Shown here piece by piece: positions 8,510-14,469 of a stretch of DNA of 64,000 nt. The notes beneath the pieces are model-generated. The model was given only the letters and a program-made list of their open reading frames with translations, ran no database searches and was not told the DNA's origin. The stretch's first letter is position 1. Each line of letters begins with the position of its first letter. Made by a program: the position numbers and the translations under genes. The stretch lies in contig CAWBYV010000013.1 of NCBI GenBank assembly GCA_963793115.1, positions 82,611 through 146,610 on the forward strand, written 5' to 3'. The stretch comes from an uncultured delta proteobacterium. Lineage in GTDB: Bacteria; Desulfobacterota; Binatia; Binatales; Binataceae.

Positions 8510-9424
8510 GTGAACGACAAGATAGTCGCAATCGCCTGCGGCGCCGGCTTTTATCGGCGGCGCGATCGCGCGGCGGCTGGGGGCGATCGCCGGCCTGCGG
8601 CCGCGAAAATCCTGACCCCAATCCCGAAGCGGCGCGCCGCCGCTTCGACGGCGCAGCGATCGAATTCGCGCGCGCCGAGATTGCCGATCCCGGCTCGCTT
8701 AAGACCGCGCTGGAGGGTGCGCACGCGATCGTGAACGCGATTCAGTTCGACGGTTATCCGATCGAGAATCCGGCCCGCGGGATTGACCTTCGAGCGCGTC
8801 GATTACGGCGGCACGCTTGCCCTGCTCGCGGCCGGCAAGCTGGCCGGCGCTGGCAGATTCGTCTATATCAGCGGCGCCGCCGCTGACGAATCGAGCAGCC
8901 ACCCGGCATTTCGCGCCAAGGGCAAAGCCGAGCGCGCGATCCGCGAATCGGGAATTCCGTACACGATCCTGCGGCCGTCGCTGGTCTACGGACCGGGGGA
9001 CAAGGTCGTCAGCGGATTCGCGCGCGCACTCAGGTTTGCGCCGCTGTTCCCGGTGCCAGGCACCGGGCGGCAGAAAGTCCAGCCGGTACTGGTCGATGAC
9101 CTCGCGGCGTGTGTGGCGCTCGCGCTCGCCGGACGCGGAGTCAACGGCACCTACGAGATCGGCGGGCCCGAATTGATGACCTTCGATGAACTGATCCGGC
9201 TCGTCATGGAGATCACCGGCCGCCGCAGGCCGATCGTCCATATTCCCGAAGCCCTGATGCGCGCGGCCGGCGCGATCGCCGAGAAGCTGCCGTGGCCGCT
9301 CTTCTCGCGCGACGCAGTGACGTTCGTGACCGCCGACAACGCCTGCGATATCGGACCGCTGGTCGCAGAATTTGGCATCCAGCTTGCGCCTGCCCGCGAA
9401 GGAATGGCTTACTTGGCGCCGTGA
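8510..9424 (+). CDS. NAD(P)-binding atypical SDR/epimerase, complex I NDUFA9-like (frameshifted)
   Basis: GAGFIG-like Rossmann start, ILRPSLVYGPGD, QPVLVDDLA, YEIGGPE. Confidence 0.85.
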
Positions 9425-9441: not shown

Positions 9442-9498
9442 CACACCTGAAATTGCAGAAGAGGCATCCCGAACCGCCGATGTGATACCACGTCGGGT

Positions 9499-10005
9499 GT
9501 GGCATCGGAGTACGACCCGGCTTTCCTGAGCGCGATCAAAAGGCTGCTGACCGACGAGGGCGGCTACACCGACCGTACGCGCGACGCCGGCGGCGCGACC
9601 AGGTTCGGCATCTCCCAGCGCGAGTATCCCCAACTCGATATCAAAAACCTGACCCGCGAGGCTGCGATCGAAATCTACTGGCGAGACTGGTGGTGCAAAT
9701 TCCGCTACGGCGCGCTGCCCTCGCCGCTAGCTTCAAAGATGCTCGATCTGGCCGTGAATATTGGACCGTCGGAGACGGCGCGATGCTTGCAGCGGGCGCT
9801 GCGCGCCTGCGGCGTCGCGATCGCCGAGAATGGGATCCTGGGGCCGTTGACGCGCGCGTCGGCCACGCGCGCCAATCAGGCCGCGCTGATCGCCGCGTTG
9901 CGCAGCGAGGCCGCAGGCTATTACCGGCTCGTCGCCGCGTCGAAGGGCGAGAGCGCAGCCGGCAAAGATTTCCTGGCCGGATGGCTCAACCGTGCTTACG
10001 AGTGA
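9499..10005 (+). CDS. GH108 muramidase (endolysin / TtsA-ZliS-like) with a PG-binding C-terminus
   Basis: EGGY-x5-DAGGATRFGISQ catalytic motif, DLAVNIGP, LQRAL, GILGPLT, FLAGWLNR. No signal peptide. Confidence 0.93.
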   Translation: MASEYDPAFLSAIKRLLTDEGGYTDRTRDAGGATRFGISQREYPQLDIKNLTREAAIEIYWRDWWCKFRYGALPSPLASKMLDLAVNIGPSETARCLQRALRACGVAIAENGILGPLTRASATRANQAALIAALRSEAAGYYRLVAASKGESAAGKDFLAGWLNRAYE

Positions 10006-10061
10006 GCCTGGCCAAGCATCACAAAGGGACCAAACGTCACTGAAAGGGGGATGATTCACGT

Positions 10062-10325
10062 ATGAATCCTGTCGAGACCTCGATAGCGGCGATCGCGATC
10101 ACCACCTTGCTCATAATCGTCACGGTGGTAGTGCTGTTCGCGCTGTTCCATCGCAAGATCGATCAGCTCTACAACGACTTGGCCGATCGCGTGCACAGCG
10201 TCGAGACGGCGATCGCCGGGCAGGGCGAGAAGATCGCCGTGATCCATCATGTCGCGGTCGCCTCGAGCAGCTCCGTGCCGACAACAGCTTCCGCTCCGGC
10301 TTCATCGGCGTCAGGAAAGAACTGA
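10062..10325 (+). CDS. Holin-like small membrane protein
   Basis: 87 aa, one N-terminal TM helix followed by a coiled-coil-like segment. Lies between endolysin and spanins. AAGGGGG RBS. Confidence 0.5.
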   Translation: MNPVETSIAAIAITTLLIIVTVVVLFALFHRKIDQLYNDLADRVHSVETAIAGQGEKIAVIHHVAVASSSSVPTTASAPASSASGKN

Positions 10326-10368
10326 GGCCGCGGCAAGGCGTTTCGCGCGATTTTGCGATGCCGGGACG

Positions 10369-10765
10369 ATGCTGACACTCGCGCAGGCTCTGGAAGCCGC
10401 TGACGCTCACGCTCCTGCTGGCCGCGGGCGCTGCATACCGCGCCGTGCTGATTTATCAGCGGGACGCGGCGCGCGCGCAGGTCGCGAAGCTGACCGCGCA
10501 GAACGCGGCGCTGGCGGCAAGCAATCAGGCCCTGAACTCGGCGATCGCGGCCCAGAACGCCGCGATCGCCGGGTTCAAGGCCAAGGCCGAGAGCGTGGCC
10601 GCGCTCGCGCTCAAGCGCGAGCAGACCGCGGCGCAGGCCGGCGCCGGCGCGCTCGACGCCGCGGCGCGCAGCGCCGCGGCGATCGAGCGCGCGCCGGTGG
10701 ATTCGCAATGCGAGGGCGCGATTCGATGGGGCAACGCGCAGGCGGCGGGGCTGGCAGGATGGTGA
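10369..10765 (+). CDS. Inner-membrane spanin (Rz-like), frameshift near 10385
   Basis: Joined reading ...LWKPLTLTLLLAAGAAYRAVLIYQRD gives an N-terminal TM anchor plus a long Ala-rich coiled coil, ending ...QCEGAIRW. Overlaps the o-spanin start. Confidence 0.65.
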
Positions 10766-11061
10766 CGCGCCGAGGCGCTGTCGTGGCGCTCGCCTCGATG
10801 GCGCTCGCGATGCTGTGGTCTTGCGCCGTTGCCCCACCGAATCCGCCAGCTCGCCCCGTGATGGTCAACGTGCCGGTTCCCACGCCCGTTTATTGCGATG
10901 CTCCCGAGCTTCAAAAGCCCGCGCTCGCGCTTGCGGCACTCACGCCCGACTCGCCGCCGGCGGACACGATCCGAGCTTACGCGGCCAGCGTCGAACTGCT
11001 GAAGGGCGCGGTGATCGAGCGCGACAAGATTATCGACGGCTGCCGCCGCCCGCCGCGGTAG
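10759..11061 (+). CDS. Outer-membrane spanin lipoprotein (Rz1-like)
   Basis: ATG 10759, lipobox LWSC, Pro-rich N-terminus (VNVPVPTPVYC), C-terminal Cys. 7-nt overlap with the Rz-like gene. Confidence 0.7.
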   Translation: MVTRRGAVVALASMALAMLWSCAVAPPNPPARPVMVNVPVPTPVYCDAPELQKPALALAALTPDSPPADTIRAYAASVELLKGAVIERDKIIDGCRRPPR

Positions 11062-11176: not shown

Positions 11177-11926
11177 ATGAAGCTCCGACTTGGATTACTC
11201 GCCTCTCACGGCGGCAGCAACCTGCAGGCGATTCTCGACGCTTGCCGTTCGGGACGACTGCACGCAGAGGCGCGGGTCGTCGTCTGCAACAACTCCGACG
11301 CACCGGCCCTGGAGCGCGCGCGGCGCGCCGGCGTGCCCGCTTATCATTTGAGCTCGCATACCCATCCGGGCTGCGGAGCGCTCGACGAGGCTATCGCGGC
11401 GACTCTCGAACGTCACCACGTCAACCTGATCGTGCTGGCCGGTTACATGAAAAAACTCGGCCCGATCACGCTCAAGCGATATCGCGGCCGCGTGCTCAAC
11501 ATCCATCCGGCGCTGCTGCCTAAGTTCGGCGGCCAGGGGCTGTACGGCAGGCGCGTGCACGAGGCAGTGCTCGCCGCGCGCGAGCCGGTATCGGGCGTGA
11601 CCGTGCATCTGGTGGACGAGGAATACGATCGCGGACCGATCGTCGCACAGCGCGAGGTGCCGGTGCTCCCCGATGACACCGTTGACACGCTCGCGCATCG
11701 CGTGCTCGGGGTCGAGCACGAGCTCTATGTGGACACGCTCGAGCGCATCGCGCGCGGCGAGATCAAGCTTCAGGGCCTTGCCGGTGAAGCGAACGGCTGT
11801 CACGGACGGGAGCGCGCAGCGATGAGGAGCAGGCAGAAGAACCTAACCCCTGCCCCCTTCCCTAAAGACGGGAAGGGGAACCGGCTGCGCTTCCCTTCCC
11901 GATTCGGGAAGGGACGGGAGGGTTAG
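11177..11926 (+). CDS. purN: Phosphoribosylglycinamide formyltransferase
   Basis: LASHGGSNLQAIL, VLAGYMK, NIHPALLPKFGG, GVTVHLVDEEYDRGPI. The C-terminal extension is read through a palindromic repeat doublet. Confidence 0.95.
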   Translation: MKLRLGLLASHGGSNLQAILDACRSGRLHAEARVVVCNNSDAPALERARRAGVPAYHLSSHTHPGCGALDEAIAATLERHHVNLIVLAGYMKKLGPITLKRYRGRVLNIHPALLPKFGGQGLYGRRVHEAVLAAREPVSGVTVHLVDEEYDRGPIVAQREVPVLPDDTVDTLAHRVLGVEHELYVDTLERIARGEIKLQGLAGEANGCHGRERAAMRSRQKNLTPAPFPKDGKGNRLRFPSRFGKGREG

Positions 11927-11927
11927 G
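11842..11927. repeat. Inverted doublet of REP-like palindromic units (CCTAACCC...CCCTTCCC-N-GGGAAGGG)
   Basis: Unit 1 at 11842-11878 forward, unit 2 at 11891-11927 reverse. Same family as 38647 and 46634. Confidence 0.75.
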
Positions 11928-11965
11928 TGGAAGCTGGCGATCTATTCCGATCATCAGGTGATGCC

Positions 11966-14469
11966 ATGAGGCTTACCTCGCCGGTAATCTACTTGCTAAT
12001 CGCCCTGGCAGGCATATCACCGGCAAATATATTACTGGCCAGCAACGCCGTGGCGCAGCCGTCCGCTGCAATGCTTCCCAACCAGGTCGCCGCGGTTTCG
12101 AGTCTGGTCACGGAATCCTGCACCGCGACTGCCGGAAATCCGGTGCTCGCCTGTGGCGCGACCGGCGATTTCGCGGTCGGGCAACCGACCTTCGCGCCGC
12201 TCGCCGCGGCGCCGAATACCTTGAACGCGGGGAACGGCGCCGGTGTCGGCCCGACGATCAGCGCGATCAATTACGTACGGCTTCCAGGCGGCGCCGGCGC
12301 GAAGAGCGGCTCGTCAACCTACTGTTACGCAATCACGACCTTCGACGGCCGCCTCGCCGAGAGCGCGCCCGGGCCGACGCGCTGCACCGGCGCGACCGAG
12401 CCCTCTCGACTTGGCGGCAATCAGTCCGAGCAGCCGGTATGGCCGATAGTCCCTGGCGCGACTCAGTACGGAATCTACGGATGTTCGGGCTCAGGCTGCA
12501 CACCACACCAGATCGGCACCTCGCTACAGATGACGGGGCTCACGGTATCGAGTGTCCTGAGCACTGGCTGGGAGGACTTCGGGCTGCCGGCCAGCACGCG
12601 CACCGCGCCGGGGACCGCTCTCAACGGTGTGCTCTATGCGACCGTCATCGGCATCACGCCGAATGTGAGTATCACGGTCAGCAACCCGCCTGCGATCAGC
12701 GGCTCGCTGAGTATCGCCCACGAAAATTGCGGCCCGATCAACACGACCCTGACTTCCTACTCCCCGCTGGGCGGAACGCTTTCATTGGTATCCGGCCCCT
12801 ATAGCTGCGCGCGGTTGCTCGACATCCCGGATGAAACCACACTTGCGGGGCAAGGCTGCTCGTATACCCAGTATCCCCAGAGCAACGGCAACAGTCCGGG
12901 TTACAACCACGGCCCTTCAATTATCTGGGGCGGCCCTGACGGTGTCATCACGGCGCGTGAGTGGACCGGCGAGAACGAGCACTCCGACTGCATCAACTAC
13001 AATGCGAACACGGTGAACCTGACGGCAACCGCGTCGGCTGCGATCACGCAGATGGTCGTCGATGCCGACGATCTTCCTCCTCCGGCGCCGGGAGGAAAGC
13101 TGGGTGGAAATAACTTTGCCCGCGTCCAGGGCGGTTTCTACGGCGGCTACGTGGAGTGCGGGCCGGCGGCAACGTCACGATCAACGGCTCATTTCCGCAA
13201 ACCGATGTCAGCAACCCTACCTTCAAGAACCTGGTGTTTTATAGCGCAAGCCCAAGCTATGAGATGGAGATATTGTCGGCTCAGGGCGGCTGGCAGAACG
13301 AGATCGATCACGCAACTTTCCTGGGGGGTGCCCAAGGCTTAGATACCGAGAACGCCGCCGGGGGCATCGAGGTTGATAACTCCGACTTCAGTTGTCCTGG
13401 CGGCGGCAACGCGATTCGGCTCGACTCCGGCGCGATGACCATAATCAGGAACACGACCGTTCAGGGTTCCTGCACCTGGAACCTGCTGACTGCCTCAACA
13501 TCGGCTCCTAATTCTGATCAGAACGCAGTAGCACTTCTGGAGGGCAATACATTCATCGGCTCAGGAGGTATCAAGCTCGACGCGCCGGGTCTGGTACTAT
13601 CCATTGGCAACTTCGGTCAAAACTCGCTCTGGGAGACCGACTCGCCACAAGCCACGGTCCTAAGCCTTGGCGACAACAACCCTGGGCCTGCCAGCGTGGG
13701 GAATCAGTCGTTGTCCCCTTGGACGACGGATTCCAAGGGCGGCTCGGTAATTTATCTCAAAAATCTTGTGAGCGCCATAAATTTTGCGCTCAACCCAAAC
13801 CGGATCGAAATCGATCCGTCGTTGCAGACGATGGGTATATTTGGTGCGGCAATCGACTTCATGCCGTGGTCAGCCGGGGCTGGTTATCGCCAGCCGTTTC
13901 GAATCGCAGTAGACTACAGCAGTACTCCGAATACCCTCTCGATTATTCCCGGCTCACAGCAGCTAGTAGACTGGCAGCCCAACCACTCTTACAACACCGC
14001 ATGTATCACACCAAGGTATGCGGGGACCTCCAACGGTCTTTATGTGTGGTGCGAGGCCGGGCCATGCGTCAGCGCCAGCCTTGCGAACGCGCAGCCATGG
14101 AATGGCTTAACCGTAACTGAAGGCACCTGCACCTGGACAAATCGGGGACAGATCTTCCCGGCTGGCAGGGGTAACGGCTTGGTCCTCTCGAACACCGGCC
14201 TCTACCAGGATGGCGGCGCAGTCAAGCACGGCACCGTCACGACCGGCGCGATCGAGGCGAGCTCGACCGCGACCGTGACGCTGAATTGGACCACTGCCTT
14301 TCCCGATACCAACTACACGCCGGATTGCTCCGTGATCGATACCGGAGGCAATCTCACGCTGGTCGATATCAACGGATGGAGCGCCGGCTCGCTCACCGCG
14401 GCGGTGAAGAATAACGATAGCGGCAACCGGCACACCGGCACGCTCGCCTGTCACGCCTTCCATAACTGA
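11966..14469 (+). CDS. Large secreted protein, tailspike/right-handed beta-helix-like (frameshift ~13155)
   Basis: Sec-type signal MRLTSPVIYLLIALAG. Pectate_lyase_3-like GGTLSLVSGPY...DIPDETTLAGQG, Asn/Gly-rich beta-helix-like rungs, WQPNHSY motif, C-terminal VTLNWTTAFPDTNY tail-fibre/H-lectin-like domain. Confidence 0.55.

Follow-up and report, generated by a model that had tools for sequence, protein, structure and literature searches.

A phage-type lysis cassette of an uncultured Binataceae bacterium as a probable Mor-dependent module of a fragmented, domesticated prophage

Orphan lysis cassettes in bacterial chromosomes are often taken for type 10 (type X) secretion systems. In the gene transfer agent (GTA) RcGTA the endolysin and holin genes are located at a separate locus, and the R/F-pyocin lysis cassette of Pseudomonas aeruginosa was reportedly described by Turnbull et al. 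in 2016 in connection with explosive cell lysis. RcGTA lysis is driven by a holin and an endolysin, and the accessory clusters of CcGTA, dispersed at other loci, share an activator (PMC13236601). Type 10 systems are represented by ChiWXYZ of Serratia, TtsA of Salmonella and YenLC of Yersinia entomophaga (PMC10847048). In phage Mu the late lysis region Plys comprises the gp22 endolysin, the gp23/gp23.1 spanins, the gp25 DUF2730 releasin and gp27, under the control of a Mor/C-family activator (PMC9239132), and the C protein binds a dyad centred at -43.5 in late promoters without a -35 element (PMC2582627). Here we describe a four-gene lysis cassette at positions 9499-11061 of a stretch of 64,000 nucleotides (hereafter the window) in contig CAWBYV010000013.1 of an uncultured Binataceae bacterium. 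A genome-wide promoter search explains this cassette better than type 10 secretion does: with a probability of roughly 60%, it belongs, as a lysis module dependent on Mor, to a fragmented and domesticated prophage, and is a candidate GTA component.

The genome (G000) is a metagenome-assembled genome of 4.16 Mb in 31 contigs (among them C4, C13, C23 and C31), estimated to be 76% complete. It was compared with four further species of the same genus (G001-G004), with metagenome contigs from three further samples (L083-L085, which are short-read Illumina contigs, and L086, which is 90% identical to this genome), and with other Binataceae genera that carry related prophages (including G016 and G017). 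A lysis locus of the alphaproteobacterial RcGTA type was considered and dropped, as the genome belongs to Binataceae.

The cassette and its four genes

The Pfam and PHROG searches, together with the translations, bear out the initial description of four co-oriented lysis-type genes, with an epimerase gene on the 5' side and purN on the 3' side:

9499..10005, plus strand: soluble muramidase (endolysin) with GH108 and PG_binding_3 domains (Pfam PF05838, 9.9e-20; PF09374, 2.5e-8; PHROG 315 endolysin, 6e-35)
10062..10325, plus strand: single-pass membrane protein of 87 amino acids (aa), with one N-terminal transmembrane (TM) helix followed by HRK, predicted N-out/C-in
10369..10765, plus strand: i-spanin-like protein (131 aa in relatives), with an N-terminal TM helix and a periplasmic Ala/Gln-rich helical region; one extra G in this assembly
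10759..11061, plus strand: o-spanin-like outer-membrane lipoprotein, Pro-rich, with a conserved Cys and the lipobox LWSC; start codon overlapping the stop of the i-spanin gene

The endolysin, the i-spanin and the o-spanin expected of a lysis cassette of a phage of Gram-negative bacteria are thus all present. The GC content of the cassette is the same as that of its neighbourhood, and no att-like flanking repeats, intrinsic terminator or sigma-70 consensus promoter were found around it, the upstream region included. Terminase, portal and other phage queries from related prophages gave no matches in the window (which was checked with those probes only), and there is no tyrosine integrase on its contig, in agreement with the earlier statement that phage structural genes and an integrase are missing nearby.

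The GH108 protein exhibits an unbroken EGGY motif and possesses neither a signal nor a signal-arrest-release (SAR) sequence; its gene is present in a single copy in G000. Its relatives in the PDB comprise 2IS5, 2IKB, 7DNP, 6V3Z and 6V40, where 2IKB is NMB1012 from Neisseria, 2IS5 is a near-identical hypothetical protein, and 6V3Z and 6V40 are of the TtsA type. The last relationship is one of the arguments for a stand-alone programmed-lysis or type 10 secretion system, in which a subpopulation of the host cells would, independently of any particle, release vesicles, DNA or proteins of the cytoplasm. However, the TtsA-type model (NCBIfam NF040573) gives this protein only 70.5 bits, against a cut-off of 240 bits.

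The 87-aa protein matches no Pfam or PHROG family, and 'holin-like', the name proposed for it by the first-pass annotation, can therefore be kept only as an architectural label, whereas the names given to the other three products are borne out by the GH108 domain and by the i-spanin and o-spanin architecture. It may be a holin-, antiholin- or releasin-like accessory protein. A weak TatA-like match (23 bits, with a cut-off of 115 bits) was taken to reflect architecture only, and no similarity was found to the DUF2730 protein of the structural operon described below. The cytoplasmic core is highly conserved (FHRKIDQLY...EKIAVIHHVA), and the family is tiny and lineage-restricted, with 13 clusters among 5.8 billion proteins. 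The prophage of G016 possesses a gene of like position and architecture, whose product is 30% identical.

The i-spanin-like protein has no match to any family or in the phage database; the features by which i-spanins are recognized, i.e. a TM helix, a periplasmic helical domain and an adjoining o-spanin gene, are all present at the level of architecture. The o-spanin shows a weak match to PHROG 3580 (5.6e-5). Its ATG overlaps the stop codon of the i-spanin gene as ATGGTGA, and both this overlap and the lipobox L-x-[AS]-C are kept in all relatives. None of the 87-aa, i-spanin and o-spanin proteins gave a tblastn match in 50,697 phage records.

The late-promoter dyad and the loci it connects

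In the two late operons of this genome the 14-bp dyad is identical, and so is its distance from a -10-like hexamer. At the cassette the two elements are:

9446..9459, plus strand: late-promoter operator CCTGAAATTGCAGA, an imperfect dyad CTGnAATTnCAG, presumed site of a Mor/C-type activator; invariant in four species
9484..9489, plus strand: -10-like hexamer GATACC, 24 nt after the operator, which puts the dyad centre at about -43.5

The CCTGAAATTGCAGA block occurs exactly twice in the 4.16-Mb genome, while about 0.01 further copies would be expected from the base composition. The second copy (C4:573603, minus strand) heads a phage structural operon. Each of the five species possesses either two exact copies or one exact copy and one with a single mismatch, always at the same two sites. 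At the cassette the block is invariant in four species despite synonymous divergence (dS) of 0.3-0.7; in the fifth, G003, the cassette copy is the one with the mismatch. The 24-nt spacer and a hexamer of the G(A/G)TAC(C/T) type are found at both loci in all species. The geometry of the dyad fits the Mu C late promoter provided that GATACC is the -10 element. As the GTG start codon of the GH108 gene (9499) is only 9 nt beyond the hexamer, which ends at 9489, this first gene of the cassette may be nearly leaderless. A search with the relaxed dyad CTGNAATTNCAG revealed no further convincing member of the regulon in the 76%-complete assembly. One-mismatch variants of the motif (CCTGAAATTGCAGG or ...GCAGC) occur elsewhere in three relatives (G004 C9:755,215; G002 C13:1,101,830; G001 C15:226,035), with spacers that lack the conserved hexamer.

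The two loci connected with the cassette lie on other contigs:

C4:547,600-573,620, minus strand: late operon of 26 kb without early genes, identified with Pfam and bounded by housekeeping genes
C31:31,443-33,277: regulatory module with an HTH_3 and Peptidase_S24 repressor, conserved operator-like blocks, a 56-aa open reading frame (ORF) and Mor, among housekeeping genes

The promoter of the late operon is followed by a 2-TM holin-like gene (homologous to the 2-TM protein of related prophages), a DUF2730 (Mu gp25-like) gene, a 98-aa gene, Gp27 and an IS481-type insertion, and then by the genes for the large terminase, HK97-type portal, S78 protease, HK97 capsid, tail tube, GTA-gp10-like chaperone, NlpC/P60 protein and Phage-tail_3 host-specificity protein. 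The Pfam families identified are Gp27, Terminase_6N, Phage_portal, Peptidase_S78, Phage_capsid, Phage_tail_2, Phage-tail_3 and NlpC/P60. The operon contains no endolysin, spanin, Mor, repressor or integrase gene, the nearest integrase being 190 kb away. A variable block of about 2.6 kb after the portal gene, missing from G001, encodes secreted Thr/Pro-rich proteins.

The sole Mor homologue of the genome (C31:32879-33277; PF08765, 38 bits) is preceded by the conserved 56-aa ORF and is divergent from the repressor gene. All five species have kept this repressor-Mor module in a single copy, and in G001 and G004 the synteny was shown to include its flanks. The distance from Mor to the cassette is 28 kb in G004, and that from Mor to the structural operon is 48 kb in G001; the DNA between the loci is of housekeeping type and homologous to contigs C31, C23, C4 and C13 of G000. 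These distances suggest that one ancestral prophage has been scattered over roughly 100 kb by rearrangements.

In other Binataceae genera, homologous cassette genes are found within Mu-like prophages, in the order CI/S24 repressor, Mor (PF08765), GH108, 1-TM protein, i-spanin, o-spanin, 2-TM protein (MKFLSDILTGKDNLTYDAARV...), Mu Gp27, large terminase and Portal_Mu. Dyads such as GTGAAAnnTTTCAC or CTGAACnnGTTCAG precede GH108 in these prophages, and in G017 the prophage's own dyad is repeated after the portal gene, as would be expected of a late-promoter operator. In the Mu-like prophages of other Binataceae genera (L026-L031 and L077-L081) the repressor directly adjoins Mor and the lysis genes, and no early region for transposase or replication separates them. 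The search for the Mu transposase (PF02914) was uninformative, as it gave no match either in 41 genomes or in the controls.

Related Mu-like prophages, whose dyads and Mor proteins are similar, circulate in this family; this, and the late-type promoter of the cassette with no fit to the sigma-70 consensus, would also agree with a phage-sensing suicide device, in which Mor/C of an incoming Mu-like phage fires the cassette early and aborts the infection. Such a decoy, however, would need neither the host's own single-copy Mor and repressor nor the same promoter on a full particle operon, and we regard this explanation as highly improbable.

The closest mechanistic model for the cassette is the late lysis region of Mu under Mor/C. 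The order of Mor, endolysin, spanins, DUF2730 and Gp27 in the related prophages is that of the Plys region, the activator here is of the Mor family, and the imperfect dyad, with no -35 element, would lie at about -43.5 if GATACC is the -10 hexamer (PMC9239132, PMC2582627). Unlike Mu, this system has a soluble GH108 protein instead of the SAR endolysin, an additional 87-aa 1-TM gene and a 2-TM protein, and a head and tail of HK97/siphovirus type, and its region is split over three chromosomal loci.

The proposed course of events is as follows. An ancient mosaic prophage, with a Mu-like regulatory and lysis front end, an HK97-type head and a siphovirus-type tail, would have been fixed in the ancestor of the genus and broken into at least three pieces parted by housekeeping genes, namely (1) the S24 repressor, the 56-aa ORF and Mor, (2) the cassette, and (3) the operon from the 2-TM, DUF2730 and Gp27 genes through terminase, portal, protease and capsid to the tail. 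Relief of repression would lead to the synthesis of Mor, which would bind the dyad at about -43.5 and activate the two operons. The signal-less GH108 enzyme would then reach the wall with the help of a holin (either the 87-aa or the 2-TM protein, or the two together), the i-/o-spanin pair would disrupt the outer membrane, and the burst of the cell would free non-replicating phage-like particles, much as in a GTA. The cassette would thus most likely serve for the release of virus-like particles and not for secretion. In lineages that lack the particle genes, such as G002, it may serve only for regulated autolysis.

Inheritance, losses and competing explanations

All pieces of the prophage are vertically inherited under purifying selection. 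G001, G002, G004 and the contigs L083-L086 share the gene order HAD, metallophosphoesterase, epimerase, cassette, purN, so that the epimerase-cassette-purN arrangement, whose conservation had been suggested as a check, is not strain-specific. The dN/dS ratio (omega) of the concatenated cassette is 0.20-0.36, with upper limits of the 95% bootstrap intervals at or below 0.47, in keeping with purifying selection. The ranges for the individual genes are 0.20-0.30 for GH108, 0.17-0.41 for the 87-aa protein, 0.32-0.55 for the i-spanin-like protein and 0.12-0.22 for the o-spanin. The dS of the cassette (0.18-0.70) equals that of its flanks (0.18-0.78, with omega of 0.16-0.23), which together with the low omega indicates that the cassette has co-diverged with the chromosome under purifying selection. 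At the other two loci, omega is 0.06-0.14 for the terminase, portal, capsid and tail tube, and 0.10-0.36 for the 2-TM protein, DUF2730, Mor and the repressor, with dS in the housekeeping range for both groups. On the upstream side of the structural operon the flanks of G000, G001 and G004 are homologous, and on the downstream side those of G000 and G001.

Several observations weigh against the proposed system. Both candidate holins, i.e. the 87-aa and the 2-TM proteins, match no known family. In G000 the terminase and i-spanin genes are frameshifted and an IS481-type element is inserted between Gp27 and the terminase gene, although some of these frameshifts may be assembly errors. In G003 the GH108 gene, the 87-aa gene and the greater part of the i-spanin gene have been lost in a deletion of about 1.2 kb; the promoter, a degraded o-spanin gene and the structural operon remain. 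Conversely, in G002 the cassette looks intact and Mor and the repressor are present, and it is the 2-TM gene and the head and tail genes that have been lost. These complementary losses indicate that the parts are not strictly interdependent, and with two of the five species each lacking one component the function is uncertain. The nucleophilic Ser of the S24 repressor is replaced by Ala in G000, G001 and G004 (GDAM instead of GDSM), which makes induction by the SOS (RecA-type) response doubtful.

The second promoter copy of G002 is fused to a host-specificity/tail gene: at L066 (G002 C6:~230,900-232,470) the promoter stands directly at the C-terminal ~630 aa of the host-specificity protein (Phage-tail_3, CBM_5_12), which may be a single tail protein kept under a phage promoter. 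The distribution of the capsid gene (none in G002 and G004) was considered as a contradiction of the link between the loci and set aside, since in G004 the operon runs off the end of a contig, while in G002 the deletion is real.

The differential losses in G002 and G003, the insertion and frameshifts in G000 and the substituted nucleophile of the repressor would also suit inert prophage debris, i.e. leftovers that have not yet decayed and have no role for the cell. This is quite unlikely in view of an omega of 0.20-0.36 for the cassette and 0.06-0.14 for the terminase, portal and capsid at dS of 0.2-0.8, and of the persistence of four unbroken ORFs in the short-read contigs, from a lineage at a dS of about 0.7. 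Moreover, the five species have preserved the non-coding 14-bp element without a change of letter at both loci, apart from the single mismatch in the G003 cassette copy.

The retention of all four genes unbroken in G002 and L083-L085, in G002 without the 2-TM holin, head and tail genes, and the purifying selection at a fixed chromosomal site are further arguments for the stand-alone lysis or type 10 secretion system introduced above. Indeed, this locus resembles the type 10 systems in being a host-inherited chromosomal set of holin-like, hydrolase and spanin genes with a GH108 enzyme as in TtsA. It differs from them in that no signal-less cargo is linked to it (the neighbours being HAD, metallophosphoesterase, epimerase and purN, and the large protein encoded downstream having a Sec-type signal by eye and being missing in G001 and G004), in that its promoter is shared with the virion genes in all five species, and in that it is a demonstrable prophage fragment. 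In addition, omega of the cassette is somewhat higher in the lineage that has lost the virion genes (0.31-0.36 versus 0.20-0.27). Taken with the low score of the TtsA-type model, these points make the stand-alone explanation rather unlikely. The first-pass annotation had described the cassette as one without a prophage and had named a fragmented prophage, with its other modules conserved in relatives, as the finding that would speak against this description; such a prophage is what the comparison points to, and neither the description nor the suggestion of type X secretion is supported.

At the level of the whole system, the closest model for the fragmented, domesticated prophage is a GTA with accessory loci under one activator. 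The locus on C4 contains head-tail and packaging genes without genes for replication, integration or the establishment of lysogeny, it is vertically inherited with synteny in G000, G001 and G004 (omega of 0.06-0.5, dS like that of host genes), and the accessory loci lie elsewhere in the chromosome, under what their sequences suggest to be common control. Since the genes are dispersed and replication and integration genes are missing, any DNA packaged would not be a phage genome, which is the pattern of GTAs. In RcGTA and other GTAs, too, the head-tail cluster lacks genes for replication and integration and is vertically inherited under purifying selection, and the portal, capsid, tail-tube, TAC_11 and Phage-tail_3 families are common to both. 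The present, putative system differs from RcGTA in its occurrence in the phylum of Binatia, in having a Mor/C activator and a CI/S24 repressor instead of GafA/CtrA, in the presence of spanins and in the loss of a component in two of five species.

The R/F-pyocin cassette of Pseudomonas aeruginosa is similar in its phage-derived holin, endolysin and spanin, in its pair of an activator and a repressor and in its association with domesticated particles (presumed here). There, however, the lysis genes lie inside the tailocin cluster and the particles are headless, while here the lysis genes are at a separate locus and the terminase, portal and capsid are strongly constrained.

Taken alone, the cassette is of an ordinary kind; what is moderately novel, for Binatia, is the scattered system that the promoter links. 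It is tempting, but for now only tentative, to speculate that a GTA-like system has evolved independently in this genus and is the first of the phylum Binatota (class Binatia), with a Mor/C regulon whose three loci are fired together from one letter-perfect late promoter. If the particles are real, a widespread uncultured soil lineage has domesticated a phage system in which one activator acts through one 14-bp site on two operons, an independent origin would be added to the short list of GTAs, and the shared late-promoter dyad would be a signature for finding scattered components elsewhere.

Flanking genes and assembly quality

The two genes that border the cassette lie outside the proposed system:

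8510..9424, plus strand: NAD-dependent epimerase/NmrA-like gene (Pfam)
11177..11926, plus strand: purN, phosphoribosylglycinamide formyltransferase (PF00551, 1.1e-45)

One extra G at 10386/10387 puts the ATG of the i-spanin gene (10369) out of frame with the rest of its coding sequence (10376-10765). This corresponds to the indel suspected at 10385, and the alignment of relatives revealed that the extra G is private to this assembly, being absent from G001, G002, G004, L083-L085 and L086. The ATG is in frame in G002, G004, L083 and L086, while G001 uses an upstream ATG; L083 and L086 encode the whole 131-aa protein, which starts with MLTLAQLWKPL... Private indels are also found in other apparently long-read assemblies, i.e. 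in the 87-aa gene of G001 and in the GH108 gene of L086. The epimerase gene of the window contains four of them (+1, +2, -1 and +1, at about 8543, 8606, 8618 and 8783) within 250 bp, and is whole, at 303-304 aa, in L083 and L086. Because neighbouring conserved genes carry private indels and the relatives lack the extra G, the i-spanin frameshift is quite probably an assembly error.

The epimerase gene is otherwise strongly constrained, and its 8540-8790 segment either has been assembled poorly or contains a compensated frameshift. The purN gene is syntenic in all relatives and is about 40 codons longer in this genome than in theirs. Directly after it (11927-14469) the window encodes, with one frameshift, a protein of about 830 aa that is secreted, judged by eye from its N-terminal Sec-type signal sequence, and that by eye resembles a tailspike or pectate lyase. 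It could be assigned to neither a Pfam nor a PHROG family, none of the tail genes of G000 is a paralogue of it, and no match was obtained in G001 and G004; homologues are encoded after purN in L086 (793 aa) and L083 (560 aa).

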